A stretch of 43,462 nucleotides of DNA from a virus (taxonomy: Duplodnaviria > Caudoviricetes), in the IMG/VR virus record IMGVR_UViG_3300037313_000819, positions 1 through 43,462 of that record; one strand, given 5' to 3'. The notes beneath the pieces were generated by a model. That model had not been told where the DNA came from. It saw nothing but the letters and a program-made list of their open reading frames with translations, and did no database searches. The translations under genes and the position numbers were made by a program. Below, one piece after another: positions 11,343 to 25,941 of the stretch (position 1 is its first letter; each line of letters begins with the position of its first letter).

Positions 11343-11528
11343 TCAATGGGTGTACCTCAACTTGACGACGGCACAGCGGGAGCACACACCGTGCTGCCGA
11401 TAACCGCCGTTGGTCAGTTCGCCCCAAACCATATGATGCCAGCCAAAGCGGCACCCGAATGGTGTCCGAACAACCCGGTCAGGCCGAAGCGATTTCGGCA
11501 GCGCGCGCTGTTTTTCACCAACGCTCAC
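11343..11528 (-). CDS. Hypothetical protein
   Basis: GTG start overlapping upstream stop; C/H-rich (C..G.H...CxxC). Confidence 0.45.
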   Translation of the reverse strand: MSVGEKQRALPKSLRPDRVVRTPFGCRFGWHHMVWGELTNGGYRQHGVCSRCAVVKLRYTH

Positions 11529-11752
11529 TTGCCTGTCTCCGGTGCTTCGGGGAGTTGCATCCAATGCGAGTAATCATCGATCCGCGACCAACCCTGCTCA
11601 CAGTCGCTATGGACCTCGCCAGTCTCATCGTCCGGCCAGATGACATGCATTTCCCACCAGCTATTTCCGGCGTGGATGTTGGTGACGCAAAGGGCTGCGA
11701 GGAATTTCGTCCCATCCTTCGGCGCGGTCGCGATGGGTTGCCAGCCGGTCAT
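11525..11752 (-). CDS. DUF551-like protein
   Basis: MTGWQPIATAPKDG...SHWMQLPEAP. Confidence 0.8.
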   Translation of the reverse strand: MTGWQPIATAPKDGTKFLAALCVTNIHAGNSWWEMHVIWPDDETGEVHSDCEQGWSRIDDYSHWMQLPEAPETGK

Positions 11753-11991
11753 GCTGCGGCCTGTTCGCCGAGTGCTTCGGGACGACGCGCCTTCGATTTC
11801 AGGTACGCCAGCGCTTCCGGAGAGAGCGATTTGCCTTCGAGGGGCTCCAAGTTCAGCAACGCTTTGCGGCGCCACGGCGGGATGCGCTCGTTAGCCTTCC
11901 AGCTGTGGACCGTCTGGACGGGATCGCCGGTTGCCGTGGCGATGGCAGTGGCCTCGCCTAGCACCTCGAAGATGTGATCGATGACCTGCAT
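11749..11991 (-). CDS. cro: Cro-like repressor
   Basis: HTH ..TVHSWK...IP; divergent from cI. Confidence 0.75.
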   Translation of the reverse strand: MQVIDHIFEVLGEATAIATATGDPVQTVHSWKANERIPPWRRKALLNLEPLEGKSLSPEALAYLKSKARRPEALGEQAAA

Positions 11992-12001
11992 GCCCGCAAC
12001 A

Positions 12002-12020
12002 CTATCCGAAAACCGGATAG
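12002..12020. promoter_or_regulatory. OR operator
   Basis: Perfect palindrome CTATCCG-AAAAC-CGGATAG, same core as the OL sites. Confidence 0.8.
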
Positions 12021-12088
12021 TTTGGCAAGCCCCGCCGAATCCGATTTTAGCGGAGGCGGGAATTTACCCAGCCTGTCACTATGTGGGA

Positions 12089-12667
12089 ATGGATGAAGCC
12101 GCGTTTATCATATTGATGCAGGATCGGATGGCCGCCCACAAGGTGAGCCAGACCGAGCTGGCGAAGATCGCCGGCCTCCCTTCTCAGTCAGCGGTGTCCA
12201 ACCTGTTCAAGGGCAAGCGGCGCTTACGGATGGACGAGCGCGCGAAGATAGCTGCCTACCTGGGAATCGAAGAAGAGCCCAACATTCATTGGGTTCCGCT
12301 GATTGGCCTTGCATCTGCCGGCGCTTGGGCCGAAGCTACGCAAGTGTCAGGGAAATCAATTCCTATTATGCGCCGGGTCGCCGGACCCCGGGCATTTGCC
12401 GTTACCATCAAAGGCGACAGCATGAACTTGCTACTCCCCGAAGGTGGTTACGCAATCGTTGACCCTGACCAGACCAGTCTTTACGCGGGCAAGGTCTACG
12501 TGCTTGAGAACGCTGACTGCGACACCACGGTCAAGCGCTACAAGGGAGACCCTGCCAGGTTTGAGCCGGTCTCCAACAATCCCGACCACCAGCCTCTCGA
12601 TTTATCCGAAACCCAGTTCCGGGTGATCGGTCGCGTTGTCAGCTATGGAAGCGACGACGGTCTCTAA
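12089..12667 (+). CDS. cI: CI repressor (HTH plus S24 autopeptidase)
   Basis: SQTELA...SQSAVSN HTH, ASAG cleavage site, GDSM Ser and TVKR Lys; likely start ATG 12089. Confidence 0.93.
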   Translation: MDEAAFIILMQDRMAAHKVSQTELAKIAGLPSQSAVSNLFKGKRRLRMDERAKIAAYLGIEEEPNIHWVPLIGLASAGAWAEATQVSGKSIPIMRRVAGPRAFAVTIKGDSMNLLLPEGGYAIVDPDQTSLYAGKVYVLENADCDTTVKRYKGDPARFEPVSNNPDHQPLDLSETQFRVIGRVVSYGSDDGL

Positions 12668-12675
12668 ATGAAAAA

Positions 12676-12719
12676 TATCCGAAAACCGGATTGACAGACT
12701 AATCCGAATATCGGATAAC
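12676..12719 (+). promoter_or_regulatory. pL promoter with OL1/OL2 operators
   Basis: TATCCGAAAACCGGATT (12676) and AATCCGAATATCGGATA (12701) flanking TTGACA (12691). Confidence 0.8.
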
Positions 12720-12765
12720 CCCTCTCAGAAGCAAAGCCCTCTGGCTTGCCTCTGGGAGGTTCTGA

Positions 12766-13107
12766 ATGTCGGACAGCAAGACAGATTTGGGCGTTGAGCC
12801 TTCGGCTCCCGGGCTCTCGCCTTCGGTCGAGCCGGTTCCCGTCTCGCCGGCTGACGCCGCTTCGATCCCTAACGCTGGCGAGTTCATTCGCAAGGCGTCG
12901 AACCTTTACCATGCGTCACTCGCTATGGAGGACCCGGCGGATCGCGAAATCTTCGCAACCAAGATTGAGGTAACGCTTCGGGCTACCGCTGATTGGCTGA
13001 CCGCTATTGCGTCAGCGATGAGCGCGCGAAGCGGCGAGACCGAAGGGCTCGCTCCGAAGGACGCCAGCGCGGTGCCGCAGGCAGACGCCCCGGAGTTCCC
13101 GGCATGA
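12766..13107 (+). CDS. Hypothetical protein; both ends encoded by hairpin elements
   Basis: First pL gene, SD GGGAGG; bracketed by elements A-L and A-R. Confidence 0.7.
   Translation: MSDSKTDLGVEPSAPGLSPSVEPVPVSPADAASIPNAGEFIRKASNLYHASLAMEDPADREIFATKIEVTLRATADWLTAIASAMSARSGETEGLAPKDASAVPQADAPEFPA
12789..12875 (-). repeat. Multi-hairpin element copy A-L
   Basis: Minus strand GCGTT-A-GGGATC..CGGC(GTCA)GCCG..CGAG-A-CGG(GAA)CCG-G-CTCG..CC(GAA)GG..GAGCCC-GG-GAGCC(GAA)GGCTC-AACGCCC. Confidence 0.85.
13009..13090 (+). repeat. Multi-hairpin element copy A-R (inverted relative to A-L)
   Basis: GCGTC-A-GCGATG..GC(GAA)GC..CGAG-A-CC(GAA)GG-G-CTCG..TCC(GAA)GGA..CAGCGC-GG-TGCC(GCA)GGCA-GACGCCC. Confidence 0.85.
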
Positions 13108-13286
13108 CCCAGATATCCGAAGAGCTTGTAGAGCGCGCCTTTGCGTTGCTGAACGCGAAATACGTTCAACGCGCCGATGCTCGCCAGCAGTCGATGGGGC
13201 TCCAGTACACCGAGGCGGAAACGCACGATCTAGCGCGTTTGATGGCGCGCTTTGCTGATCAGGTCATTTCGGAGTTGGGCAAGTGA
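13104..13286 (+). CDS. Hypothetical protein
   Basis: MTQISEELVERA...; ATGA overlap. Confidence 0.65.
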   Translation: MTQISEELVERAFALLNAKYVQRADARQQSMGLQYTEAETHDLARLMARFADQVISELGK

Positions 13287-13453
13287 CCGGCGCTCCCGAA
13301 GAGCGGATTCCGCGGTTTGCTTGCGGGCATTATCGCACCGCCAGCAACAGCAAGCTGGTACGCAATAAGACTGGCATAACTTGCGCCACCTGCTTCCGGA
13401 AGCGTGACAAGCTCTATCGCCGCGCCAAGCGTGCTGCGGAGCGCGGGCAATGA
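13283..13453 (+). CDS. Small Zn-binding-type hypothetical protein (56 aa)
   Basis: Manual: MTGAPEERIPRFACGH...CATCFRKRDK...; GTGA/ATGA overlaps at both ends. Confidence 0.6.
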   Translation: MTGAPEERIPRFACGHYRTASNSKLVRNKTGITCATCFRKRDKLYRRAKRAAERGQ

Positions 13454-13641
13454 ACGCCTTCGCCCGCCCCCACCCTACCTCTGTACCCTCAGTAGAGGAA
13501 CTGGCGAAGATCATTGAGCGCCGGACGCCACGTGCGCGTGTGCATCTGCCTGACCCCTCTCCGGACTTCGGATGGCAGGCGGAGGGCGAAAGCCTGGACC
13601 CCTATTACACCAGCCCGTTTGGGCTGCGGAGGACCGTATGA
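13450..13641 (+). CDS. Hypothetical protein
   Basis: 63 aa, coupled to neighbours. Confidence 0.55.
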   Translation: MNAFARPHPTSVPSVEELAKIIERRTPRARVHLPDPSPDFGWQAEGESLDPYYTSPFGLRRTV

Positions 13642-14042
13642 ACAAGGATTCTGAGCGACCCTTCGGGCAACCTGCTGGCGGGGCTTCGCCCCCGAGCCCT
13701 TCGGTCTCGGCCCTGTCGGGCGCTCATCAGGCGCATACTCCGGGGCCTTGGATGCGTGACGGTATTTCCGTCACTGTCGAGAGACCGGCAGGCCGAAAGC
13801 GCACCGCTATCGCCACAGCTTACCCGGACACATCCATATCATCCAGCGCTAGTTACAGTAGGATGATCAGCAACGCCCGCCTGATAGCAGCGGCCCCTGA
13901 TCTTCTGGAGGCGCTGGAGGTCTTCGTCTCGCAATACGTCGAACTCGTAGAGAGTGGCGACGCTGGCAACTGGGATGCCGAGACAGAGCCGAAGGTAATC
14001 GCCGCTCGCACCGCCATCGCCAAAGCCCGAGGTCTCTCATGA
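13638..14042 (+). CDS. Hypothetical phage protein (HTPGPW...NARLIAAAPDLLEAL family) with N-terminal hairpin element
   Basis: Recurrent phage motif; start ATG 13638 with SD GGAGG. Confidence 0.8.
   Translation: MNKDSERPFGQPAGGASPPSPSVSALSGAHQAHTPGPWMRDGISVTVERPAGRKRTAIATAYPDTSISSSASYSRMISNARLIAAAPDLLEALEVFVSQYVELVESGDAGNWDAETEPKVIAARTAIAKARGLS
13653..13734 (-). repeat. Multi-hairpin element copy B-L (no partner seen)
   Basis: Minus strand GCG-CCTGATG..GCCC(GACA)GGGC-CGAG-A-CC(GAA)GG-G-CTCG-GGGGC(GAA)GCCCC..CAGCAGG-TTG-CCC(GAA)GGG-TCGCTC. Confidence 0.85.
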
Positions 14043-14242
14043 GCGCACCCGGAAATCCGGCAGCCTTCCCCTGCTCTCCGGGTGACGTGCCATTCTGGAA
14101 TGAGGGCATGACCCTGCGAGATTACTTCGCTGGGCAGGCGCTGGCAATGTCCATGCCTGACAGCCCGCAACACTTGGCTGATTGGGCATACCGAGTTGCC
14201 GACGCCATGCTCGCCGAGCGCGCAAAGGTAGGTCTCTCATGA
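14039..14242 (+). CDS. Hypothetical phage protein (PAFP...GMTLRDYFA...AY.VADAML family)
   Basis: Recurrent phage motif. Confidence 0.85.
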   Translation: MSAPGNPAAFPCSPGDVPFWNEGMTLRDYFAGQALAMSMPDSPQHLADWAYRVADAMLAERAKVGLS

Positions 14243-14397
14243 GCGCGGAAAATCCGAGCCGGGAAGAGCGGGCATGGATACTGCTGTGCCAGCGCCTCGA
14301 GCGCAATCCGGACACTTCCGAAGAATACGAGACGTGCACTCTGCGCTCGGCCTGGAAAGCCATGATCGCGTTCGAAGCGCAGGAGCGTCTCTCATGA
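14239..14397 (+). CDS. Hypothetical protein
   Basis: MSAENPSREERAW...; ATGA overlap. Confidence 0.6.
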   Translation: MSAENPSREERAWILLCQRLERNPDTSEEYETCTLRSAWKAMIAFEAQERLS

Positions 14398-14431
14398 TCT
14401 CCCACCATTCCGATACTAAAGGAGGAGGCCT

Positions 14432-14641
14432 GTGACCAACGCTGAACTCGCGAAAGAGCTTTCGGCGCGCGCGGTCATCGCCGCCGTGATTTTCGGGCTG
14501 ATTTATCTGCTCGGCGCATTTAACGCGGCTTCTTTCGACATAACGAAATGGGAAATCGGCCTTCGAGCTGGCGTGTCGTTCATCGGCGGGATCGTCGCGC
14601 TGCTGATCAGTGCATATCCGTTCGAACGGTTCACGTCATGA
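14432..14641 (+). CDS. Small two-TM membrane protein
   Basis: Strong SD AGGAGG; two hydrophobic segments. Confidence 0.7.
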   Translation: MTNAELAKELSARAVIAAVIFGLIYLLGAFNAASFDITKWEIGLRAGVSFIGGIVALLISAYPFERFTS

Positions 14642-14738
14642 TCTCCCCTCCCTCACAGGCTCAGGACCATAGCTGGAAGCTTGTTGCTGCTGGGTTGGTC
14701 GTTGGGGTGCTGATTACCTGGATCAGGAGCTTAATCTG

Positions 14739-14987
14739 ATGCCCACATTCGCACGCCGCATCGACGCGCTCGGTGGAACCGAGTCCGACCAGTCCGAGGA
14801 TTGGAACGACGGCTACAGCGCCGCTCTGCGTGAAGCAACGGATATCGCAGAAGAAGCCGATGATGTGATTTCCGAACTCGTCGGGAGCATCGAAGACTTC
14901 CTGAGCGGCAACTTCAGCCATCTCCCGCGCTTCGCGGAGGAGGCGGAAACGCTTTGCCGTCGCATCAACGAGAGGACTGCACGATGA
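14739..14987 (+). CDS. Hypothetical protein
   Basis: 82 aa, SD AGGAG, acidic. Confidence 0.65.
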   Translation: MPTFARRIDALGGTESDQSEDWNDGYSAALREATDIAEEADDVISELVGSIEDFLSGNFSHLPRFAEEAETLCRRINERTAR

Positions 14988-15358
14988 ACGCGAAGCATTG
15001 GTCCATTGCGACTGCGATTGAACAAATCGACAAGTGCGATTTCGAGTGTGAAGCTGGCCCCTTGTCGCTCAACCAAGGTTATATCTGGCTGAAAGCAGCG
15101 GCGAAAGTTGGTCCGCAATTCTGGCCCGGCCAAGGCGTGTGGTACAAAATAACCGGCGAAATCTCCGGCTTCCAAATGGAGCGCTGGGCGCATCTCTACA
15201 TCGTCGGATGCGCGATGTCGTCGGATACCGAGCAACGTCTATGGACGTACTCGCTCAGCAGCGATCCGCCGGCTCCGTGGCACTATGGGACTGTCGCGTT
15301 TACCGGCGTTACTGAAACCGCGCTCAGTTTGGTCGACCCCGCGAAGGAGGACGCCTGA
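14984..15358 (+). CDS. Hypothetical protein
   Basis: MNAKHW...CDFECEAGPL; ATGA overlap. Confidence 0.65.
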   Translation: MNAKHWSIATAIEQIDKCDFECEAGPLSLNQGYIWLKAAAKVGPQFWPGQGVWYKITGEISGFQMERWAHLYIVGCAMSSDTEQRLWTYSLSSDPPAPWHYGTVAFTGVTETALSLVDPAKEDA

Positions 15359-15359
15359 C

Positions 15360-15587
15360 ATGCGCACCCCCGCACACACCCTCCCCTTCCTAGGTCCCGA
15401 ACCTGAATACCAGCATGCAAATGGGTTCATGAGGGAAGAGCCGACGTTCGATACGATCCGGCGGTACTGGTTCGACCAGGACTTCGCCGACGAAATCGAC
15501 GCCGAGACCGCTGCCATGCGCGCGAAAGCCCATGCCGCGATCGATGCCTGCATTCAACGCAATCGGGAGAAAAACCGTGGCAACTAA
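15360..15587 (+). CDS. Hypothetical protein
   Basis: MRTPAH..., SD AGGAGG. Confidence 0.6.
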   Translation: MRTPAHTLPFLGPEPEYQHANGFMREEPTFDTIRRYWFDQDFADEIDAETAAMRAKAHAAIDACIQRNREKNRGN

Positions 15588-16326
15588 GGCCATCACCACC
15601 ACTGATACGTCCAGCGAAGTCGCTGATTATAGCGGCGGCTTGCTCGCTGTGATCGAGCGCGCGGCCCGCGATCCGAATGTCGACATTGAAAAGCTTGAGC
15701 GCCTCTTTTCCCTGAAAGAGCGGATGGATGCGCGGGAGGCTGAGACGGCGTTCAATGCAGCGATGAGTGCTGCCCAGGCCGAGATGCGGCCGATCGCTGC
15801 GGATGCCATGAACCCACAGACGCGCAGCAAGTATGCCAGCTTTGCTGCGCTCGATAAAGCCATTCGCCCGATCTACACGAAGCACGGCTTTTCACTGAGC
15901 TTTGATGAAGCTGACTGCCCAAAGCCCGATTACGTTCGGGTGGTCTGCTACGTTTCGTGCGCTGGCCACACCCGCATCTATCACCGCGATATGCCGGCGG
16001 ATGGCAAGGGCGCCAAGGGCAATGACGTGATGACCAAGACGCATGCGGCCGGCGCCGCCGGTTCCTACGGCGCACGCTATCTGCTCAGGGGCATTTTCAA
16101 CCTGGCCGTCGGTGAGGATGACCGCGACGGGAATGAAGACGATGATGTGATGATCGACGCCAAGCAGTGCGCCGAGCTTCGCAAGCTGATCGAGCAGGCT
16201 GGCGTCACTGAGGAATCGTTCTGCGATTACGTCAAGTGCGGGACGCTGCCCGAACTGGCGGCAAAGCACTTCGACCGCGCCAAGGGCGTGCTGACCCAGC
16301 GGATTAACGCGGGGGCGGGCAAATGA
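15577..16326 (+). CDS. erf: ERF-family single-strand annealing protein
   Basis: DIEKLERL, AFNAAM..AQ, KYA, GS..SYG.RY.L..IFN.A..EDDRDG; GTG start. Confidence 0.88.
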   Translation: MATKAITTTDTSSEVADYSGGLLAVIERAARDPNVDIEKLERLFSLKERMDAREAETAFNAAMSAAQAEMRPIAADAMNPQTRSKYASFAALDKAIRPIYTKHGFSLSFDEADCPKPDYVRVVCYVSCAGHTRIYHRDMPADGKGAKGNDVMTKTHAAGAAGSYGARYLLRGIFNLAVGEDDRDGNEDDDVMIDAKQCAELRKLIEQAGVTEESFCDYVKCGTLPELAAKHFDRAKGVLTQRINAGAGK

Positions 16327-16982
16327 TGGAAATCGTCAATTGCGAGCAGGGCACGCCGGAGTGGTTCGCAGCTCGCGCAGGCATCCCAACCGCAAGCATG
16401 TTCGCCACCGTCATGGCTTCAGGCCGTGGCGGCGGGGACAGCAAGACCCGCGCGAAATACCTCTACCAGCTTGCGGGCGAGATCATCACGGGCGAGCCCG
16501 TGGAGAGCTATTCCAACGCTCATATGGAGCGTGGCAAAGAGATGGAGGGTGAGGCCCGAGATACCTACGCCTTCATCCACGGCGTTACCCCCCAGCAGAT
16601 CGGCTTTATCCGCAGCGGCGCGAAGGGGTGCAGCCCGGATAGCCTGATTGGCGCGGATGGCATGTGCGAGATCAAGACCAAGCTCCCGCATCTGCAAATC
16701 GAGGTTCTGTTGCGCGGCGGCTGTCCGCCCGAGCACAAGGCGCAATGCCAGGGTGCGCTTTGGGTAGCGGAGCGCGAATGGATCGACTTCGTATCCTACT
16801 GGCCGAAGATGCCCCTGTTCGTTCACCGGGTGCACCGCGACGAGGACTATATCAAGGCGCTGTCGGAAGGCGTTGACGCCTTCAACGAAGAGCTTTCGGC
16901 GCTGGTGGAGCGCGTGCGCGCCATGGGCGGCGAGCCAGCGAATGATGATGGCTGGAAGACCAACGTCCTGAGGGCTGGATGA
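16323..16982 (+). CDS. YqaJ/lambda-exonuclease-family recombination nuclease
   Basis: QGTPEWF..R.G..TAS, SPD, EIK, QCQG.LWV. Confidence 0.92.
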   Translation: MMEIVNCEQGTPEWFAARAGIPTASMFATVMASGRGGGDSKTRAKYLYQLAGEIITGEPVESYSNAHMERGKEMEGEARDTYAFIHGVTPQQIGFIRSGAKGCSPDSLIGADGMCEIKTKLPHLQIEVLLRGGCPPEHKAQCQGALWVAEREWIDFVSYWPKMPLFVHRVHRDEDYIKALSEGVDAFNEELSALVERVRAMGGEPANDDGWKTNVLRAG

Positions 16983-17197
16983 TGCGTGCGCGCCGCCCCT
17001 CCCCCAGCGAAATCCGCATGGAAGAGCTTTGCGCCCTTCGTCGTGACCTGACGGAGGACGAGCAGGCCGAGATCATGGCACTGAAGCGCCGCATCACCAA
17101 CGCGCGCTGCGTCCGCCGTCGATATGCGCGAGACCCGCAATTCCGCCAGAGCGAGATTGAGCGCAACCTGCGGCGCTACCGGGAGCTCCGGGCATGA
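16979..17197 (+). CDS. Hypothetical basic protein
   Basis: 72 aa, coupled to neighbours. Confidence 0.55.
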   Translation: MMRARRPSPSEIRMEELCALRRDLTEDEQAEIMALKRRITNARCVRRRYARDPQFRQSEIERNLRRYRELRA

Positions 17198-17577
17198 CGT
17201 TCCTAGGCCCCGCAGCCTTGCGCAACCGCAAGAAGAACGCACCGCGCCCTGCGTGGAAAGTGGCCGATGCTTTCAGGCAATGGCTCAGAGGAAGGCCATG
17301 TGCGTGCCAGGGCAAGAACCCCGACTGCGGCGGCCCGATGCGATCTGCGCACGTCGATTACGCTGGTTCGAAGGGCATGGGAACGAAAGTCGCGGATTCC
17401 GACTGCATCCCACTCTCGGACAACTGCCACCGCCTCCAGCATACCATCGGCTGGCGCTCTTTCGAGGTGAAGTACCTCAAGGGCGAAGGCTCCGGGCAGG
17501 CAATGTCGAACGAATACTGGAGCGCGTGGCCCGGCCGCAAGGCGTGGGAACAGCAACTGGAGGCCCGCAATGGCTGA
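17194..17577 (+). CDS. Putative HNH-like nuclease (DUF968/HNHc-like)
   Basis: W.R..PC.C...AHV....GMG.K..D...IPL...CH..QH. Confidence 0.75.
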   Translation: MTFLGPAALRNRKKNAPRPAWKVADAFRQWLRGRPCACQGKNPDCGGPMRSAHVDYAGSKGMGTKVADSDCIPLSDNCHRLQHTIGWRSFEVKYLKGEGSGQAMSNEYWSAWPGRKAWEQQLEARNG

Positions 17578-17776
17578 TGTTCAACCCTGCGATTTCTGCG
17601 GCGCGCCAGTCGTTTGGACGGCCGAGCAGATCAACCTCGACTTGGCCCTCAAGCTGCGCGGATCGCCTCACTGCACCGGGCTCGGCGTGATGTGCGACGC
17701 CTGCGACGACAAGCAAATCACCCTCATGATCGCTGAAATGGAGCGCGATGCGCTGGAGGAGGAAGACGATGCGTGA
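17570..17776 (+). CDS. Small Zn-finger-type protein
   Basis: CDFC...CDAC. Confidence 0.55.
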   Translation: MADVQPCDFCGAPVVWTAEQINLDLALKLRGSPHCTGLGVMCDACDDKQITLMIAEMERDALEEEDDA

Positions 17777-18176
17777 CGCCGGCACCTTCGCCAAAGAAGG
17801 CTTTTCGCTGATCCCCAAGGACTTCGACGCGCGATCGATCATCGGGCGCCTGAAGGAAGGGGATCGCCTGTTCGTGGAAGTCTGGAAGCCGCGCAACATG
17901 GCGCAGCATCGGGCCTATTTCGCGATGCTCAACAATGTTGTCCAGGCGTCAGGGCAATGGCCTTCGAGGGAAGCGCTCGAGTTCGATATCGCGCTCGCCC
18001 TTCGCCGCGGGACCTTCGTCAAGGCGATGAACGGCAGCACCCATTTTCGGCCCGACAGTCGCGCCGTGGCGTCGATGCCCAAGGAGGACTTCGAGCGCCT
18101 CCACAACGACACCGTGGCGCTCCTGACCGATTGGCTGGGCTGCGATCCCGAGATGCTTCGCGAGGAAGCAGCGTGA
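17769..18176 (+). CDS. DUF1367/NinB-like protein
   Basis: KPRN...HR.YFAML, P.S....SM...DF..L. Confidence 0.7.
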   Translation: MRDAGTFAKEGFSLIPKDFDARSIIGRLKEGDRLFVEVWKPRNMAQHRAYFAMLNNVVQASGQWPSREALEFDIALALRRGTFVKAMNGSTHFRPDSRAVASMPKEDFERLHNDTVALLTDWLGCDPEMLREEAA

Positions 18177-18204
18177 CCCCTTCAAATCATTCAGGACCAT
18201 CCTC

Positions 18205-18600
18205 ATGACAAACGATATAGCCGAGACAGCGGCTGAACTTGAAGGCTACATCGCCCGTCGCCGCGATTGGTCGAGCAAAACATCTATGATGTCGATCCCT
18301 CAGCCAGTGATCGAGCGGACGATCGTCGTATTGAGAGGCCTCGCCACACAATCACCAGCATCGCTGGAGCGGGAGGCGCTGAAGCACCCCGGCACCGCTC
18401 GCTGCACTGATCCGCGCGGCCACGAGTTTATGACTTGGGACCTTCCTGCCGATGTCGGCGACGGTGCGACAGTAGCCATCGAGGTCGAGCGCATGCTGCT
18501 CAAATGCTTCGAGCACGGGCGGGCATACCAGATGGAAATCGTCAGCAATGCGATGGTCGACATCAGCAAGCAGCGCGATAGGGACAACGACCATGTCTGA
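18205..18600 (+). CDS. Hypothetical protein
   Basis: 131 aa ORF in operon orientation. Confidence 0.6.
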   Translation: MTNDIAETAAELEGYIARRRDWSSKTSMMSIPQPVIERTIVVLRGLATQSPASLEREALKHPGTARCTDPRGHEFMTWDLPADVGDGATVAIEVERMLLKCFEHGRAYQMEIVSNAMVDISKQRDRDNDHV

Positions 18601-19396
18601 CGCAGACACCACCCCGCCATCGGATCGCGCGGGGGAGGAGCTACCCGAGCCGTCCCAGTCGTGGGCGAGTGTCATGGCGAATATCCGCCAAGGGCGAAGC
18701 TCAACGCCGCGCTGCGAACCGCTGAGCGAACGCGATATCCAGTGGGCATATGACCGCATCTGCGAAGTGGTCGAGGCGTACCGGACGCTGGTCGCCTATT
18801 CACCGCGCACCGCCTCCCCGCCATCGGATCACATTGCCAGCCCCTCGGGGGAGGAAGTGCATCGGTTGCTTGAGCAAGTTCAGCGGCGAGGCACGTGGAT
18901 GCGGGAGGTTCACAAGCTCGATATTCGCCAGTTCGTGGACAGAGCTGGGCAGTGGGGCACATTCGATTTCGTAAACGATGCGCTGCACTTGATATCGCAT
19001 CTAACCGCCGCCCCCTCTCCAGCCCAGCAAAGCGGGGAACTGCGGGAGGCGTTCCTTCAGACGCAAATGATGCTTGAACAGATTGTGCATCTGAAATCGA
19101 CCGATTTTGCCGAAGTCCGTGCCCGCATCATGGCGAACCGCCAAGCCCTCGCATCCACCCCATCGTCTTCTCCATCAGAGATGGGACGGGAAGACATTGC
19201 GCGGATCATCGACCCCGGCCTTTGGGCGCAGCACGATGCGAAGCTCGCCGAACTGATCGATCTGGACGGCGATCCGCTGGGCGGGGTGATCGCGCACGAC
19301 AAGCGCGATGAAGCACGCCGACTTGTAGCCGGCACTCTGCGCAAGGCCGACGCCATCCTCGCCCTATCTCAACCCACAGAACTGGGAGAACGGTAA
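18593..19396 (+). CDS. Mosaic hypothetical protein
   Basis: Modules separated by P/S-rich linkers; RE.IARIIDP...KADAILAL module. Confidence 0.65.
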   Translation: MSDADTTPPSDRAGEELPEPSQSWASVMANIRQGRSSTPRCEPLSERDIQWAYDRICEVVEAYRTLVAYSPRTASPPSDHIASPSGEEVHRLLEQVQRRGTWMREVHKLDIRQFVDRAGQWGTFDFVNDALHLISHLTAAPSPAQQSGELREAFLQTQMMLEQIVHLKSTDFAEVRARIMANRQALASTPSSSPSEMGREDIARIIDPGLWAQHDAKLAELIDLDGDPLGGVIAHDKRDEARRLVAGTLRKADAILALSQPTELGER

Positions 19397-19638
19397 TGGG
19401 CGAGTATGCCGAATACGCGCTCGCTGCGGCGATGCGTCGAGGTTTCCCGGCAACTTGCGGCGGGGCTCCGCGAGCGCGGTCCAAAGCCCATCCATGCCGC
19501 CTGTGCAACCGGGGCATTCGCGGCGGCCACATGGGCATGGTCAGCCATCTCAAATCCAAGCACGGCATGAAAGATCGCGAGGCCCGCACATTCGTTTGCA
19601 CACCCCTCGCCCAAGCGCAGGGAGGATCGGCAGTATGA
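19396..19638 (+). CDS. C2H2 zinc-finger protein
   Basis: MGEYAE...CRLC...HLKSKH. Confidence 0.7.
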   Translation: MGEYAEYALAAAMRRGFPATCGGAPRARSKAHPCRLCNRGIRGGHMGMVSHLKSKHGMKDREARTFVCTPLAQAQGGSAV

Positions 19639-19645
19639 GCGAGGG

Positions 19646-19840
19646 CTACGGCTTTTCGCGACGTGCCAGCTCGCGCTCGACGGCTTGCCGGATGAACTCC
19701 GCCCGCTTGCCAGGTCCTGCGAACGCATCGATCCGCGCCAGCGTCTCCGCTGACAGCCGCACCGCTGTGAACTTTCCGATTGCTGGTCGCCCCATGCGCG
19801 GCGGACTAGCCGTTATCTCTTTCTGTGCCAAGTCGCTCAT
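19646..19840 (-). CDS. Ribbon-helix-helix DNA-binding protein
   Basis: MGRP....T.VRL....LARID......RAEFIRQAVE.EL; opposite to operon. Confidence 0.85.
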   Translation of the reverse strand: MSDLAQKEITASPPRMGRPAIGKFTAVRLSAETLARIDAFAGPGKRAEFIRQAVERELARREKP

Positions 19841-19896
19841 GTTTCCGTTATCGCCTATTGACAGTAACCGTTATCTTCTATTAGATAGCCGTTATC
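19810..19896. promoter_or_regulatory. Divergent promoter with four CCGTTATC operator repeats
   Basis: CCGTTATC at 19810, 19845, 19868, 19889; TTGACA at 19858; AT-rich. Confidence 0.75.
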
Positions 19897-19914
19897 GTTT
19901 ACGGAGGCAAGCAA

Positions 19915-20202
19915 ATGTATAAGCCCTACACCCCGAACCAGTTTCGTGTCCTAGCCGCTGCGTTCCGCGGTGACGCCAACGCGGCCAGCTTCGATAGCCG
20001 CCGAGCGAAGACGCGCGCGCTCAACGATATGGTTTCGGCCAAGCTCGTCTATGGCGGGCTTGAAGGCGGGGCGCTGACCCCGGATGGTCTCCGCGCCTAT
20101 ACCGACATGTGCATGCGCTATGATGCCGACAGCGGTTGCTTGGCGTATGCCGAACGGGCTCAAGAGGCGCGCGCTGCCCTCCGTGCGATGGAGGCGCAGT
20201 GA
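19915..20202 (+). CDS. Hypothetical protein (possible winged helix)
   Basis: SD GGAGG; L...GL......LT..G pattern. Confidence 0.7.
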   Translation: MYKPYTPNQFRVLAAAFRGDANAASFDSRRAKTRALNDMVSAKLVYGGLEGGALTPDGLRAYTDMCMRYDADSGCLAYAERAQEARAALRAMEAQ

Positions 20203-20411
20203 TGGACGCCGAAGCAATCGCGGACATCGTAGAGCAGTGCCTGAACGGCGATAGCGGGTACGTCATGAAGTCGGTCGGCTTCGCGATCACTTCGCTGAGC
20301 GATCTCGGCGAGGTCTACGTTCGCACTCCCAGTGGCGACCATTTCAGGCTGACCGTCGAGCCCGTCGCGGCAGACGATATCGAAGGATGGGGGATCGAGT
20401 TCGATGACTGA
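20202..20411 (+). CDS. Hypothetical protein
   Basis: MDAEAIADIV...; coupled. Confidence 0.6.
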   Translation: MDAEAIADIVEQCLNGDSGYVMKSVGFAITSLSDLGEVYVRTPSGDHFRLTVEPVAADDIEGWGIEFDD

Positions 20412-20838
20412 TCCCGCGACGCCGAACACCCCTCCCAAAGACGCAGCTTCACCCGTAGAAGCGGAGATCGACTACGAGGTCTGGCAATCCGATGCGTTCG
20501 GCGATGGCGTCGCGATGGTTGCGGGATCGACGAGCCTCGAGGAGGCCCAGCACTATTGCGCGGTCTATGGGCAGGACTGGCCGGTGTGGATTGTCGAGGT
20601 CACTCGGCGCCGCATCAGCGATCCGAACAGACCGGACATTGCTCCCGCCCCTACCGTTACGGTATCTGCGGAGGACTTCGTACTGGTGCCGCGCGCCGAG
20701 CTTGAGGATTTCTCGTATGTGATCAGCAATCTGATCGGCGAGCTTTCCGACCCAGGCAGCGGCGCGATGGCCGCGCAGTATCGCATCCGAGCCATGCTCT
20801 CCGCCACTCCCGCCGCTGTTAAGGGGGGTGAAGGATGA
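20404..20838 (+). CDS. Mosaic hypothetical protein
   Basis: FVLVPR...YRAMLSA.P-type module. Confidence 0.65.
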   Translation: MTDPATPNTPPKDAASPVEAEIDYEVWQSDAFGDGVAMVAGSTSLEEAQHYCAVYGQDWPVWIVEVTRRRISDPNRPDIAPAPTVTVSAEDFVLVPRAELEDFSYVISNLIGELSDPGSGAMAAQYRIRAMLSATPAAVKGGEG

Positions 20839-21344
20839 GTGATAACAACGAGTTAGAGCGCGTGCCGTTGGCACCGGGCTCTCATGAACCGAGCCCTGAC
20901 GGTCTCGGCCCTTCGGGTTTCGATCCCTCGCGCAGCCACTACCGGTCGCAGGCATACGCCATGTGCACAATCGAAACGGGTCGGGACAGCGACGGCGCTC
21001 CAACCAGCGACATGTGGACGTTCGCAAACGAGGATGACTGTGTCGAGGGCTATGGATGGCTGGAAGTTCACGTCCATGAAATCGTACAGACCGAGCGCTC
21101 GGGCGCGTTGGCCGTCTATTACCGGCAGTGGTTTGCACCTGATGGTGAGCCAGCTTGGGGCAAGAGGCCGCAACGTAAGGTCGGCGCGCTCGGTAGTCTG
21201 AAATCATTGATCCGTCGCCGCAAGATGACGCCATGCGATAGCGATGGAAGCCCGGAGGGCGAAAAGCCGCAGGCTTTGAGTGCGCAGCACGACAGCGCGG
21301 GCCCAACGGGCATCGCCCAACCCCCATCGGAGGAAGTCCAATGA
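20835..21344 (+). CDS. Hypothetical protein; both ends encoded by hairpin elements
   Basis: ATGA overlaps; bracketed by elements C-L and C-R. Confidence 0.7.
   Translation: MSDNNELERVPLAPGSHEPSPDGLGPSGFDPSRSHYRSQAYAMCTIETGRDSDGAPTSDMWTFANEDDCVEGYGWLEVHVHEIVQTERSGALAVYYRQWFAPDGEPAWGKRPQRKVGALGSLKSLIRRRKMTPCDSDGSPEGEKPQALSAQHDSAGPTGIAQPPSEEVQ
20856..20933 (-). repeat. Multi-hairpin element copy C-L
   Basis: Minus strand GCGCG-A-GGGATC..CCC(GAA)GGG-CCGAG-A-CC(GTCA)GG-G-CTCGG..GAGCCC-GG-TGCC(AAC)GGCA-CGCGCTC. Confidence 0.85.
21235..21318 (+). repeat. Multi-hairpin element copy C-R (inverted relative to C-L)
   Basis: GCGAT-A-GCGATG..GCCC(GGA)GGGC..AGCC(GCA)GGCT..GTGC(GCA)GCAC..CAGCGC-GG-GCCC(AAC)GGGC-ATCGCCC. 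Confidence 0.85.
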
Positions 21345-21532
21345 CCAAGTATTTCGCAGATATCAACGTGCAGCTTCGTGTCTATTTTGAAGATGATGGC
21401 GAGAACGACATCACCGACCAAGCGATGGAATTGGCCGAGCATTCATTCACTCTGAATGGCGATGACACCGATTATCTCGGCTTGGAGATGGTTGGCAAGC
21501 CTGAGCAAAGAAAGACAGAGGCACCCCGATGA
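21341..21532 (+). CDS. Hypothetical acidic protein
   Basis: 63 aa, SD GGAGG. Confidence 0.65.
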   Translation: MTKYFADINVQLRVYFEDDGENDITDQAMELAEHSFTLNGDDTDYLGLEMVGKPEQRKTEAPR

Positions 21533-21744
21533 CCTCTATCCAAAGAGCCCGTCGCATCCGCGCCATGAACGCAAGACTTGCGAGCATCGAAGCCGAACGC
21601 CGCCAGATCCTCGCCGACCTTCTCCCCCTGGAAACAGAGGAAAGCTGGTCCCTTGGATACCGCTGCGTAGTCCGTGGAGACAAGCTCATTGCTTCCATGG
21701 ATCACCGCGACGAAGCCGAACGTCGTGCGAGGGAAGCGGCATAA
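21529..21744 (+). CDS. Hypothetical protein
   Basis: 71 aa, coupled. Confidence 0.6.
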   Translation: MTSIQRARRIRAMNARLASIEAERRQILADLLPLETEESWSLGYRCVVRGDKLIASMDHRDEAERRAREAA

Positions 21745-21935
21745 TGGAGAATGCTCGCTTCTGGACATCTTTCGGTTTCGCGCTGCTAGCATATGCTATC
21801 GCACGCGCTGCTGACGTACCTATCTGGTATTGGGAACGAGGTGGTGACGCGATCGGTATCGCAGCTGCCGCCGCCTTTGCAACCTATGCGTTTCTCGGGT
21901 TCGTCGCCAAAATCCTTTCGAGGGAAGCGGCCTGA
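21744..21935 (+). CDS. Small two-TM membrane protein
   Basis: MENARFWTSFGFALLAY...; two hydrophobic segments. Confidence 0.6.
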   Translation: MENARFWTSFGFALLAYAIARAADVPIWYWERGGDAIGIAAAAAFATYAFLGFVAKILSREAA

Positions 21936-21936
21936 C

Positions 21937-22260
21937 ATGATTGCGCCCCGCCCCTTCAGTCCGGAGACGCTTTCTGAGCGCTGGGGTTGCAGCGCGGAGA
22001 AAGTCCGGCGCATGTACCACGATGGCGAGCTTTCCGGGTTCCGGCTCGGCAAGCTGATTCGCATCACCGCCAACGAGGTAGAGCGCTACGAGTGTCAGAA
22101 TACCGAATTGTCGAACACCGCGGAAGATTCTCCCTCGCCTATAACGATGACGAGCGAGGACGCGTTCGAATTGCGCTTGGCACGGATGACCGCGGGATCG
22201 CGGAGGCTCGCGCTCGCGACATCTGGCGCGCCCGCACTACGCCCCAAAGCGAGCGGGTAG
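21937..22260 (+). CDS. xis: Excisionase (HTH_17/MerR-like)
   Basis: FSPETLSERWGCS...VRRM...GEL..FRLGKLIRI; overlaps integrase start. Confidence 0.8.
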   Translation: MIAPRPFSPETLSERWGCSAEKVRRMYHDGELSGFRLGKLIRITANEVERYECQNTELSNTAEDSPSPITMTSEDAFELRLARMTAGSRRLALATSGAPALRPKASG

Positions 22261-23060
22261 CGGATCTATGGCCCGTCTATGTCGCCGATCGCCAACGGGA
22301 GGTCTCGCGCAAGGACAGGTTCGACAGCCTGTGGAAGGCCCTCGCCCCGCATTTCGGGCACCGCTTGGGCACCGCCATATCCCGAGACGATTGCCGGGAA
22401 TACCACAAGGCGCGCAAGCGGGCGGGCAAGAGCAACAGCACCGTCAAGACCGAGCTGGAGTTTCTCCGCGCGTGCCTGCGCTTCCACTACAAGGCCAACG
22501 CCCCGAGCATTTGGATGCCGCCGGACAGCAAGCCTCGAGAGCGCTATCTGAACGAAGCCGAGCGCGACAAGCTGCTGGCGTCGATCGACGCACCGCACGT
22601 CAAGCTGTTCGTCATCCTGGCACTGACCACCGGAGCGCGGATGAGCGCGTTGCTGGACCTGACATGGGATCGCGTCGACCTGAACGTTGGTACTGTGGAT
22701 CTGAACCCCGCCGGCCGGGAGATCACCAACAAGCGCCGCACCATCGTCAAGCTGAACGAAAGGGCGATCAACGCGCTGCGCGAGGCGCAGGAAGCGCGCC
22801 AGACAGATCATGTGATCGAATATGGCCGGGAGCCGGTCAAGAGCATCCGCAAGGCCATACGGGCAGCGGCGGCGCGCTCTGGGGTCCCATGTTCCCCGCA
22901 CGTCTTCCGGCATACGGCTGGCGTATGGATGGCGAATGCCAATGTCTCGATGGATCGGATCGCGCAGCGGCTAGGAACGACCGTCCGGATAGCCGAGAAG
23001 CACTATGCTAGGTTTAGCCCATCGTACCAGCAAGAGGCCGCCGACGCGCTCAACTGGTAG
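22092..23060 (+). CDS. int: Tyrosine integrase
   Basis: TGARMS..L.L.W (R), K, PHVFRHT (HxxR), C-terminal HYA (Y); likely GTG start at 22092. Confidence 0.93.
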   Translation: MSEYRIVEHRGRFSLAYNDDERGRVRIALGTDDRGIAEARARDIWRARTTPQSERVADLWPVYVADRQREVSRKDRFDSLWKALAPHFGHRLGTAISRDDCREYHKARKRAGKSNSTVKTELEFLRACLRFHYKANAPSIWMPPDSKPRERYLNEAERDKLLASIDAPHVKLFVILALTTGARMSALLDLTWDRVDLNVGTVDLNPAGREITNKRRTIVKLNERAINALREAQEARQTDHVIEYGREPVKSIRKAIRAAAARSGVPCSPHVFRHTAGVWMANANVSMDRIAQRLGTTVRIAEKHYARFSPSYQQEAADALNW

Positions 23061-23075
23061 CTCGGCCGGTTCCGC

Positions 23076-23296
23076 GGTACCACCCGAACCTCTCGGGCGG
23101 GCTAGGGAAACCCGCAGAAATGCGTGGTGGGCGCTGAGAGACTTGAACTCCCGACCCTCTCGGTGTAAACGGTGGGGACGCCAGCCAATCTGGGATTTTC
23201 TCGCCAACGAACGACGGGATTTAGCCACTTTAGGCCGGTTTCGTTCCGATTGCGTTCGCGTCAGTGGTACATCTGGTACCAGCCGAACCTCTCGGG
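23076..23296. repeat. 22-bp direct repeats flanking the attP core (putative arm sites)
   Basis: GGTACCACCCGAACCTCTCGGG (23076) vs GGTACCAGCCGAACCTCTCGGG (23275). Confidence 0.7.
23125..23171 (-). other. attP: attP core: 3' half of tRNA-Val(TAC)
   Basis: Minus strand CGTTTACACCGAGAGGGTCGGGAGTTCAAGTCTCTCAGCGCCCACCA: anticodon loop, T-arm, CCA; 5' half absent; next to integrase. Confidence 0.9.
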
Positions 23297-23353
23297 TTTT
23301 GCGCCCCGCCTCCTTGCAGGGAAACGGGGCGCACCAGAGGCATGGAGGTGCCA

Positions 23354-23743
23354 GTGGCTGACCGCTATCTAACCCAACGGGTCTATTTTATCCAAGCCGG
23401 ATCGCGAGGCCTGATTAAGATCGGGATCGCCGAAGATCCCGCGCGCCGGCTGCGCCAGATGCAGACTGGCAGCAGCGAGCCCCTTATTCTTCTGGGCCAT
23501 ATGCCCGGCGGTGCTGATCGGGAAGCAGAGCTCCAGCGCTTGCTGGCCGCACATCGCGCCCGTGGCGAATGGTTCCGGCCTGTCCCTGAGGTCTTAGCAT
23601 GGGCTCCAGGCATCGAGACCGAGCAGCTTTGCGAAGCCCTAGGCGGTGTCAGCCGCGATGAGGCTATGCGATATATGCTTCATACGATGATGGGGCTCAA
23701 TCCGTTCCCGAGGAACATACCGGCACATAGGTCGGCACAGTGA
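23354..23743 (+). CDS. GIY-YIG (T5orf172/MUG113-like) protein
   Basis: VYFIQ....IKIG...P..RL..MQTG...E..L......R.RGEWF. Confidence 0.85.
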   Translation: MADRYLTQRVYFIQAGSRGLIKIGIAEDPARRLRQMQTGSSEPLILLGHMPGGADREAELQRLLAAHRARGEWFRPVPEVLAWAPGIETEQLCEALGGVSRDEAMRYMLHTMMGLNPFPRNIPAHRSAQ

Positions 23744-24246
23744 GCGGAGCTTATGAACTCCGCCCGATAACGGTGAAATCCGGTATCGCATGGATAAGCG
23801 ACGTGCACCGTCACCTTCCTATCGTGCAAGGTGGGCTCTTCGCCGTGGCGGTCTATCAGGGCCCGCAGCTCGTTGGCGTCGGGCTGACCGGCAATCCTGC
23901 CCGCGTGTGGCAAGGGACTGGCCGTGTCATTATCTCCCGCGTCGCCGTGCTGGCAGGCCTCGATCACGTTGGCAGCCACGCCGCACCTGTCTGCTCGATG
24001 ATTTATGGCGCCCTCACCCGCGCTTCTCGAGCACTCGGCTACCGAGAGGTTTGGACTTATACGCTGCCAGAGGAATCGGGCGCCTCTCTGCGAGCCGCTG
24101 GCTTTATCGACATGGGGCTTACGCGGGCTGAGGAATGGGATCGCCCCTCGCGCCGTCGCAATGCCGCGGTACGGCCAGATGCAAAACGCCGCTGGGTGCG
24201 TCACTTTGGCGACCCGGTAACCGAGAAACTGAGGATCGCAGCATGA
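23740..24246 (+). CDS. XF1762/Mom-like GNAT-fold protein
   Basis: PI......I...HRH, LVGV...G.P, CS..YGA..RA..ALGY....TYTL..E.GASLRAAGF. Confidence 0.8.
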   Translation: MSGAYELRPITVKSGIAWISDVHRHLPIVQGGLFAVAVYQGPQLVGVGLTGNPARVWQGTGRVIISRVAVLAGLDHVGSHAAPVCSMIYGALTRASRALGYREVWTYTLPEESGASLRAAGFIDMGLTRAEEWDRPSRRRNAAVRPDAKRRWVRHFGDPVTEKLRIAA

Positions 24247-24458
24247 CCGAACCACTCGACATCTCCAGCGAGGCAAACCGCACCTATCATTATGCGGACG
24301 GCGTCACCTTCACGATCGATGCGCCGTACAAGCTCCATGTGACCGACACCGGTTCGCATCGGGTCGTTGCGCAGGACGGGCGGACCTATCGGCCAGAGCG
24401 CGGATGGCTGGCGATATCCTGGCAACCTCGCGAAGGTGCGCCGGAGTTTGTCGCATGA
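24243..24458 (+). CDS. Hypothetical protein
   Basis: DISSE..RTY.Y......I..P..L.V...GSHRV recurrent phage motif. Confidence 0.7.
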   Translation: MTEPLDISSEANRTYHYADGVTFTIDAPYKLHVTDTGSHRVVAQDGRTYRPERGWLAISWQPREGAPEFVA

Positions 24459-24488
24459 TATCCCGCCTCAACGAGCATGGAGGGTTTG

Positions 24489-24827
24489 ATGGATAACAAT
24501 GGCTTAGGACCCGAAGTTGGGCGACGGCTAGCGCCGCAACCTGCTCTCGCCGTTCCGGCCGAGCCCGCAAGCGGGCTCGTCGCTTCGCGCTTCGATCAGG
24601 CGCAGGCCAGTTCGTTTAGGCCGTTGAGCGGGTTCATTGCCGAGGTAGAAGATAAACTCGGCCGGCGTCCATGGCCAATAAGGGCTTGGAGCTTCTTCAG
24701 CCGCCGTATTTTGCGCTTCCGATTGCGGAGGTATGCTGCCCGCAATCCTAAGGCGAAAGTTAGCCAGGAAGCGTTCGATATTGTCTCGCGGGAATATGGC
24801 TTGGGCCCTGATATAAAGGAATCTTGA
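24489..24827 (+). CDS. Hypothetical protein with N-terminal hairpin element
   Basis: SD GGAGGG; contains element D-L in frame. Confidence 0.6.
   Translation: MDNNGLGPEVGRRLAPQPALAVPAEPASGLVASRFDQAQASSFRPLSGFIAEVEDKLGRRPWPIRAWSFFSRRILRFRLRRYAARNPKAKVSQEAFDIVSREYGLGPDIKES
24519..24603 (-). repeat. Multi-hairpin element copy D-L (no partner seen)
   Basis: Minus strand GCG-CCTGATC..GC(GAA)GC..CGAGCCCGC/GCGGGCTCG-GCCG(GAA)CGGC-GAGAGCAGG-TTG-CGGC(GCTA)GCCG-TCGCCC. Confidence 0.85.
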
Positions 24828-24941
24828 TGTGGCTATGGAAGCTGCGCGCATGGTGGATCTATATGACTTGGCATCCGGTGCGAGACCGCTCTCCCGAGTA
24901 TGCCGATTTGATCCGCTTGTCGGTCGAAAAGGCTAGAGCCA

Positions 24942-25175
24942 ATGTCGCCCGTTCACAGGATGCTGGTCGACGCGATCCGAGCCATCGCAGAGCCCCTAGG
25001 CGCGTCTGTGGAGTATAAGACTGGCGCTAAGCATGCGTTCGCGATCATCCGGCACAATGGCAGCTTTCGTAAGGTCGCGATGTCGAATGGCACAAAATGT
25101 ATCAAGCATCAGATCGATTGGGCGGAACAGGGTGCCAGGAAGGCGCTCAAAAGCATGGACCAACCCCCTGCTTGA
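24942..25175 (+). CDS. Small protein, possibly HicA-like fold
   Basis: G..V....G.KH......G pattern. Confidence 0.5.
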   Translation: MSPVHRMLVDAIRAIAEPLGASVEYKTGAKHAFAIIRHNGSFRKVAMSNGTKCIKHQIDWAEQGARKALKSMDQPPA

Positions 25176-25323
25176 CCACCATTTGGGATAGCATCGGATG
25201 GCCACCGATGAGCCGGATAGCCTTTGTCGGGCGAGGAGGTCCGCGACGCCTGCGTTAGCCACGCAGCCGCCTCGCGTTCAAGGGTAAGGCCGGCACTTGA
25301 CCACCCTCTATAGCATGGAAGGA

Positions 25324-25575
25324 ATGTCAATGAGCGAAGACATTATCGACTTGGCGGCCGAGCGTAACCGCCGGATCGCGCCTGATGCCGAGCACGTGAT
25401 GCATGACGACTTCGGGCGCGAGATGTACAGATTCCTGCTGACCTACGATTTTTCTGGTGGCCAGTGGGGAACCGAGATGTGGGCATATTCCGCAGAGGAT
25501 GCCGAAGCGAAGGTCGCGGCCATGCGGGAATCGCTGCGCGTGGACGGGCAAGTATTTACTCAAATTCTTGCGTAG
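25324..25575 (+). CDS. Hypothetical protein
   Basis: IIDLAAER...FLLTY...G..W...WA.S.EDAE. Confidence 0.7.
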   Translation: MSMSEDIIDLAAERNRRIAPDAEHVMHDDFGREMYRFLLTYDFSGGQWGTEMWAYSAEDAEAKVAAMRESLRVDGQVFTQILA

Positions 25576-25901: not shown

Positions 25902-25941
25902 TCCTCTCCCCTACCCCGTCGCCGATAGGAGATAGATACCC

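Follow-up and report, generated by a model that had tools for sequence, protein, structure and literature searches.

Cassette A is a small phage gene that is read in frame through two inverted copies of a structured element, and the question raised by this locus is how such a gene is assembled and whether the elements move it. The ORF lies in a viral genome of 43,462 nt, all of which was analysed and is called the window below. The window looks like a complete 43.5-kb temperate phage with a 127-nt terminal repeat and genes for cI, Erf, exonuclease, integrase, terminase and portal; we infer an alphaproteobacterial host. A preliminary description of the locus had proposed a mobile or exchangeable mini-cassette that is the first gene behind pL and has its start and stop signals outside the element pair.

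Cassette A and other arms of the window

The ORF is intact, heads a run of small genes after cI and consists of a left arm (A-L, 87 nt), a cargo (133 nt) and a right arm (A-R, 82 nt). A covariance model built from six right arms, all of other phages, detected both A-L (E 1.4e-12) and A-R (E 3.5e-11) at the positions given in Table 1. The geometry of the preliminary description was reproduced by these matches: A-L starts 23 nt after the A of the ATG, A-R ends 17 nt before the end of the ORF, the arms are inverted with CGCCC ends facing outward and the elements encode about half of the protein (169 of 342 nt). A-L and A-R have 62 identical positions in 89 aligned columns, a score higher than in all 2000 shuffles. 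The pair is not an exact inverted repeat and is absent from the 25 longest inverted repeats of the window; single arms folded as RNA no better than shuffles (z from -0.4 to +1.1). Neither exact repeat search nor RNA folding of single arms revealed the arm family.

The cargo, first described as unique, is so within the window, but one other phage carries the same cargo. Likewise, the gene is the first ORF after cI, with operator-like palindromes (at 12004, 12677 and 12702) and -35/-10-like boxes (TTGACA-17-GATAAC, 12691-12719) visible, but a consensus promoter scan called no promoter upstream of cassette A. Structure prediction from two sequences (pTM 0.37; pLDDT 86-88 at residues 41-80 and ~45-52 in the tails) suggests that the cargo forms two helices between disordered tails. 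Searches with the cargo returned a single homolog and no Pfam or PHROG family; Atlas matches stayed < 0.9, with no structural match. Among GenBank phages we found four weak matches to the ORF and none to a right arm.

The covariance model located four further arms in the window, one inward pair (cassette B) and two solo left arms. A scan for relatives of the phrog_1273 gene that carries one of the latter found none.

Table 1. Positions of features of the window
Feature	Position	Strand	Remarks
cI-like repressor	12089..12667	+	phrog_4
Operator-like palindromes, putative pL, ribosome-binding site	12677..12763	+	Common to G002; upstream breakpoint of slot swap
Cassette A ORF	12766..13107	+	113 aa; arm-encoded tails (predicted disordered) around predicted two-helix core
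Left arm A-L	12789..12875	-	GGG subtype; bottom strand folds; inner pentamer GCGTT pairs with distal AACGC
Cargo A	12876..13008	+	133 nt, ~44 codons; purifying selection; without family
Right arm A-R	13009..13090	+	GCG subtype; top strand folds; inner pentamer GCGTC pairs with distal GACGC
Gene-boundary linker, 36 bp	13100..13135	+	Stop of A overlaps next start; 97% identical in G002; downstream slot-swap breakpoint
Solo, diverged left arm	13653..13734	-	N-terminus of a phrog_1273 gene; other phages have this gene without an arm
Erf-like single-strand annealing protein and exonuclease	15532..16982	+	phrog_155 and phrog_149; candidates for short-homology shuffling
Cassette B ORF	20835..21344	+	169 aa; inward arm pair, 301-nt cargo; arms read in another frame
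Cassette B left arm	20856..20933	-	Covariance model
Cassette B right arm	21235..21318	+	Covariance model
Solo left arm	24519..24603	-	Within ORF 24477-24827
Boundary stretches shared with G002	13100-13135, 13270-13303, 18813-18855, 20784-20833, 21518-21556		90-100% identical
Boundary stretches shared with G002, continued	24453-24492, 25296-25333, 25669-25711, 25899-25937		90-100% identical

Elsewhere in the window, a GIY-YIG-looking protein (identified by eye; PHROG of unknown function) is encoded at 23264-24246, after the integrase and next to a Mom-like DNA modification gene. A secreted-looking protein at 26222-26920 (minus strand), placed as a phage moron, ends in VPEPAAWAMM, a tail of PEP-CTERM type.

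Predicted fold of the arm

The arm fold has two junctions, one three-way and one four-way, along with an outer stem of 5 bp, a GAAG loop and a stem that contains an A-G mismatch. In 65 arms aligned to the model, both partners vary in 23 of the 27 pairs, and 96.6% of the 1667 cells are paired (34-47% in slid-partner controls); these covariation counts overstate independence because the alignment was fitted to the proposed structure and the arms are related. G-T pairs occupy 22 of 1667 paired cells. Triloops of the GNA type closed by C-G are very stable in DNA; among the 510 triloops of 157 arms, 326 are GNA, 280 of them closed by C-G. The GNA strand is the more stable one in 150 of 153 arms with DNA energies and in 119 of 153 with RNA energies. 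Triloops, rarity of G-T pairs and strand asymmetry indicate that the arms are likely to fold as single-stranded DNA.

Conservation of the arm stops sharply at the inner GCG: information is 1.8-2.0 bits at positions +1 to +3 and falls to 0.0-0.3 at -2 to -12. A G directly 5′ of the arm is seen in 1 of 150 cases (background 29%). The distal pentamer perfectly complements the inner one in 134 of 150 arms; the inner pentamer, GCGNN, has nine forms (GCGTT in 20 of 150 arms). The outer ends are conserved too (CGCCC, then A-rich).

Arm cassettes in other phages

Three pattern scans of IMG/VR gave 205 loci; ~125 of these and five fetched records were analysed with the model. Counting distinct neighbouring pairs less than 1300 nt apart, we obtained 74 pairs, 47 facing inward like cassette A, 15 outward and 12 in tandem; these counts describe arm-bearing loci only, because the loci were found by arm patterns. 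Inward pairs enclose 133-664 nt of cargo. A single ORF, with start no more than 75 nt upstream and stop no more than 75 nt downstream of the pair, crosses 30 of the 47 inward pairs (5.5% for random spans) and fails to cross 17. The 5′ arm is of GGG subtype and the 3′ arm of GCG subtype in 28 of the 30 read-through pairs. For one locus (L193), the pair analysis probably took the ORF from the wrong strand, an open frame being present on the opposite strand as well.

Ten further proteins, not counting close cases or those with a shared cargo, have one or both arm peptides around unrelated middles, and genes with a left arm only or a right arm only occur as well. The cargoes are mostly without family, Pfam matches being seen in 3 of 38 proteins [DUF1643 (full), dCMP deaminase and Fic]. 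A brief search of representatives with arm peptides gave at least six matches, a lower bound on the size of the family. In a literature search (largely without subscription journals), we found no account of such cassettes, nor one that treats the arm as a DNA element. The arm cassettes are a real, recurrent and apparently undescribed architecture that is built from a widespread structured element.

Homologous cargoes were seen between different arm subtypes at two pairs of loci (L332 and P0013; L027 and L219); the arms of L332 and P0013 are read in different frames, which implies separate joining events. A 69-kb viral contig has three tandem arms (L207-L209); each lies upstream of genes that are antisense to it, and 960 nt separate two of the arms.

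Exchange of cargoes and slots

Two relatives allowed the history of cassette A to be followed. In the first (G001), the 133-nt cargo of cassette A is enclosed by other arm variants and occupies another slot; of 45 codons compared, 26 differ synonymously and 3 non-synonymously, hence the cargo is a working domain. The second (G002), whose cI protein is 100% identical to that of the window, has arms identical to those of cassette A over 67 nt (left) and 25 nt (right), exactly up to the inner edges, and these near-identical arms enclose an unrelated 172-nt cargo in another slot. At that slot the window shares with G002 only the outer end GACGCCT and what follows. A third sequence, P0006, has the N-terminus of cassette A and another cargo; start and stop travel with the arm or the slot and not with the cargo, in agreement with the proposal that both lie outside the element pair.

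The pL slot of G002, the nearest relative, is occupied by an arm-less gene, with breakpoints relative to the window at 12763 and 13100, and a soil run has the same joints. Both breakpoints lie outside the arms. Exchange is real, but whole-gene swaps here use the linkers. Stretches of 34-50 bp at gene boundaries are 90-100% identical between the window and G002, while the gene bodies between them differ (Table 1), a pattern that bears the marks of slot-wise gene exchange at linkers. At 15330-15352 of the window, the end of an arm-less gene resembles the last hairpin of a right arm together with its GACGCC end; a full right arm ends here in G002.

Arms and cargo therefore reassort among the window, G001 and G002 rather than being always co-inherited with their flanks, and the exchangeable part of the mini-cassette proposal stands. 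The mobile part, by which the cassette would be moved, excised or inverted through its outer ends, is not supported: no fused empty arm pair was present in 456 sequences (1.93 Mb), and contigs of four runs listed no inversion and no strand-change joint, contigs being compatible with rare inversion or excision since they drop rare variants. Among seven short-cargo candidates for an empty pair, the two that were opened were not empty pairs and five were judged chance matches from the sequence string. No target duplication was found, and arm polarity is fixed.

Probable joining of arms to intact genes

Unarmed relatives suggest how a cargo is armed. The armed DUF1643 gene has CCT AGC GCG ATC at the position of ATG AGC GCG ATC in an unarmed relative of 69% identity; none of 11 relatives examined had an arm, by a descriptor that also missed the right arm of the armed gene itself. 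Arm peptides were found in 0 of the 120 closest homologs of the armed dCMP deaminase, and most of the closest homologs start with MSxRW, whereas the armed protein has PSARW. In both cargo families the left arm replaces the start Met. The TPGPW gene family has members with and without a left arm.

Sequence upstream of the left arm goes with the arm and not with the cargo (P0006 versus the window; L245 versus L201), and the joint is therefore one-ended and not an insertion. A pentamer shared at the junction is seen at the DNA level in one cargo family (DUF1643) and loosely in a second. This pentamer is not simply derived from the cargo, because cargo A has AACGC in the window and AGCGC in G001. 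These comparisons point to arming by one-ended joining to intact genes at their start; the joint lies at a pentamer with which the far end of the arm can pair. Such joining could be guided by an enzyme, in the way that the guide of IS608 reads its target (PMC5027513, available text), or could result from microhomology annealing and selection.

The explanation that we favour, to which we give an even chance, is that arms serve as folded-DNA joints, with guided one-ended joining to gene ends followed by shuffling through short homology. Under this explanation, cassette A is a small conserved phage gene fused in frame at both ends to inverted 80-90-nt copies of an element that is predicted to be branched single-stranded DNA and is likely a one-ended joining site. 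The distal pentamer of the arm, which pairs with the inner GCGNN, may pair equally well with foreign single-stranded DNA that has a matching pentamer, and a putative enzyme supplied in trans would link the arm with the foreign DNA. A whole domain that acquired a left arm at codons 2-3 and a right arm near its last codons would gain the start and stop of the slot; joints breaking the frame or the domain would be lost. From then on, Erf-type annealing within arms and at gene-boundary linkers would probably carry armed cargoes from slot to slot and from phage to phage.

Several results count against guided joining. Five armed phages have no recombinase or nuclease in common, and no enzyme gene accompanies the arms in phages. 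The swaps among the window, G001 and G002 would need no special enzyme if crossovers fell anywhere in the 11-13 conserved inner bases; later cargo swaps need only Erf and these bases. The 17 inward pairs without read-through and the swap outside the arms in the nearest relative also weigh on this side.

Arms in bacterial chromosomes, conjugative plasmids and phiX174

A narrow arm pattern gave 120 loci in GTDB genomes (an estimated ~1400 stretches). The orphan Rfam motif Flavo-1 passed its gathering score at 5 of 10 bacterial loci tested, and one of our models, R2, scores Flavo-1-type elements at 30-40 bits. Copies in Bacteroidota correspond to Flavo-1 and are intergenic and in both orientations, with 13-150 pattern matches per genome in four genomes (none or one in the reversed control). 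The chromosomes of G011, G012 and G013 have 68-150 Flavo-1-like copies each, with no partner enzyme found, and look like an unrecognised dispersed repeat. In the four arm-bearing Bacteroidota genomes, 0 of 18 Y1-transposase or GIY-YIG loci had an arm nearby (Y1, 0 of 3, two of the four genomes, which may be incomplete, giving no Y1 match; GIY-YIG, 0 of 15). An inward arm pair 470 nt apart was seen in a Mucilaginibacter chromosome (L440:1585-2052), and two tandem arms lie upstream of ardC in an alphaproteobacterial genome (L442:1186-1566).

Among conjugative plasmids, a 24-kb stretch of F gave two matches to the model, which lie ~470 nt upstream of ssb and of the gene in the ygeA position. Relative to the ssiD fragment as published, the arm is ~95 nt further out, on the folding strand. 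R46 has three arms, and its conserved upstream regions, shared with pKM101, are known as CUP; R388 has two. At least 5000 PLSDB records match one plasmid arm copy with its flanks. In F, the CGCCC end of the arm is ~10 nt or less from the outer edge of the duplicated Frpo1/Frpo2 block (L183:14092-14173 and 19480-19561).

These copies bring in an alternative that we consider possible though doubtful, namely that the arm is a host-protein signal on single-stranded DNA (a primosome assembly or priming site, a replication roadblock or a 3′-end cap) and that cassettes arise only through Erf/Rad52-type microhomology annealing and selection. Single arms are antisense, 470-600 nt upstream of leading-region operons, in F (two), R46 (two of three) and R388 (two), plasmids that share only host factors with the armed phages. 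Similarly, at 9 of 46 bacterial loci scanned the arm adjoins ArdC, ArdA, DUF932, DUF2958, DUF4942 or ParB, with the folded strand always antisense. A core descriptor of Flavo-1-type arms matches the F-G intergenic hairpin of phiX174 (1 in 100 shuffles matched), which we take to be the primosome assembly site; at 2308-2351 (L182) this hairpin shares with such arms the stem, the purine mismatch, a GAA/NGA loop and the following GACC. The descriptor, however, was written after seeing phiX174 and misses ColE1, F, R46, R388 and the window's own arms; the arm model itself has no match in ColE1 or phiX174, and the arms of R46 and R388 lack the GAAG loop. Strand bias is weak in the one chromosome analysed (G011, 56 of 89 arms on the C-rich strand, with replichores judged from 20 sampled stretches). 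A host signal leaves unexplained the exclusion of G 5′ of the arm and the 13-150 places per genome. In phage cassettes, priming would run inward across the cargo, because both folded strands lie 3′ of it. A single-strand promoter is reported to stall complementary-strand synthesis (bioRxiv 10.64898/2026.01.09.698686, accessible part).

A broader version of guided joining would cover these copies as well: the arms may be recombination sites of an undescribed, cross-phylum system of single-stranded-DNA gene capture. Their fold would contain a 5-nt guide that can be reprogrammed and would attach itself to the ends of foreign genes; it would assemble in-frame expression cassettes in phages and, in conjugative plasmids, flag the anti-defence modules that are shuffled. 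We advance this version tentatively, as a claim well short of an even chance.

Other explanations

A solo MITE- or REP-like element that inserts independently, with only gene-end insertions surviving and pairs being coincidental, is unlikely. It would account for the intergenic solo copies in both orientations in Bacteroidota and for left-only and right-only genes in phages. It would also fit the patchy occurrence at one syntenic site in relatives of Flavobacterium, where the arm is present in 2 of 18 loci and absent in 16 (~7 of these with the same upstream gene), a pattern that counts for the favoured explanation as well; spacers there are too diverged to fix the element ends, and a search for empty sites among relatives of G011 was unsuccessful. 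The one-ended joint, at which upstream sequence follows the arm, speaks against independent insertion, as do the GGG-cargo-GCG order of 28 of the 30 read-through pairs and the failure to see target duplications.

Still less probable is movement, excision or inversion of arm-cargo-arm as one composite unit by its outer CGCCC ends, as in IMU- or MITE-composites. The conservation of the outer ends and the restriction of window-G002 similarity to GACGCCT and beyond at the cassette slot of G002 are what such a unit would leave, but the pL-slot breakpoints lie outside the arms, arms and cargo reassort, and no target duplication, fused empty pair or inverted cargo was found.

Action of the arms as RNA, e.g. 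by pairing of left with right in the transcript or by translation coupling, is very improbable: both arms lie in one transcript and Flavo-1, described as a candidate non-coding RNA, matches half of the bacterial loci tested, but the folded strand of the left arm is antisense, loops and G-T scarcity are DNA-like, and Flavo-1 matches are reported, in the accessible part of PMC9723704, on either strand with many outside transcribed regions.

One structure links three things without an assigned function: the odd low-complexity tails on small phage proteins, the orphan motif Flavo-1 and a previously unremarked module that adjoins the single-strand promoters of F, IncN and IncW plasmids. Arms that serve as joining sites, as we favour, would offer temperate phages a concrete route to gain further accessory genes and express them; arms that serve as host-protein signals could be tested at once in E. 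coli K-12, through the copy in F.

Comparison with known systems

Flavo-1 (RF01705; PMC2864571, as far as available) has in common with the arms an outer scaffold, GCGTTAGGGAT-NGAAGC...AGCCCG-hairpin-AACGCCC, and RF01705 hits the same bacterial elements as the arm pattern or model. The inner part of Flavo-1 is a single long hairpin, and the motif lies between genes and is classed as an RNA of unknown role, whereas the arms of the window have a four-way junction, are translated and are paired; RF01705 has no match in 11500-26000 of the window at E up to 1. Flavo-1 is also said, in the part of PMC9723704 that could be accessed, to match ‘indistinctly’ sense or antisense, often outside transcribed regions.

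Leading-region blocks of plasmids, in the available parts of their descriptions (Frpo/ssiD of F: PMC9849209, PMC11541004; conserved upstream regions of pKM101/R46: PMC6294495), contain an arm on the folding strand. By eye, two of the Frpo* candidates of Samuel et al. contain one too. Plasmid arms are single, untranslated and in direct repeats, and cassette A, unlike the Frpo blocks, has no -35/-10 hairpin. The literature searched on these blocks does not describe the arm as a separate element.

Integron attC is a folded single-strand site with covarying arms and unpaired bases that bounds exchangeable genes, and its joining to short secondary sites is the model that we borrowed for the arms. 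The arms differ in being inverted, branched and translated, and they have no fixed GTT/AAC triplet. As to an integrase, the window has a phage tyrosine integrase, which three other armed phages do not share. The RYYYAAC...GTTRRRY boxes of attC are not seen, given the nine forms of the inner pentamer and GCGTT in 20 of 150 arms, and in place of direct orientation 47 of the 74 pairs face inward, with 15 outward and 12 tandem.

IS200/IS605, REP and PATE elements (PMC5027513, accessible text) resemble the arms in having single-strand hairpin ends and no target duplication; their 4-5-nt target, read by an internal guide, has a possible counterpart in the complementary pentamers of the arms (134 of 150) and in the junction pentamer of DUF1643. 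Arms have no Y1 transposase beside them, their ends are inverted and not on one strand, and the lagging-strand-template preference of IS200/IS605 is missing (56 of 89 on the C-rich strand in G011). PeSL cassettes of T4-type phages are likewise repeated structured elements around small accessory genes and drive modular shuffling, as stated in the portion of PMC2839356 at hand; there, PeSLs are intergenic promoter-terminators in direct orientation, whereas arms lie inside an ORF, are inverted, GC-rich and free of promoter boxes, and no promoter or terminator was called within them.

Ssn nucleases act on SRM/NTS hairpins, dispersed repeats that, like the arms, are hairpins and are cut as single-stranded DNA, and some right arms start with CGTCA, a likeness to SRM/NTS. 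SRMs are single hairpins of 20-50 nt that flank the nuclease gene (PMC11893778, for both statements on Ssn as far as its text was available); arms are branched, vary in the pentamer and flank no GIY-YIG gene. An IMU-like MITE composite is contradicted by the lack of target-site duplications and of breakpoints at the outer ends. The arms thus fail the defining tests of attC, IS200/REP, Ssn, PeSL and MITE-composite systems, yet work like a blend of them.
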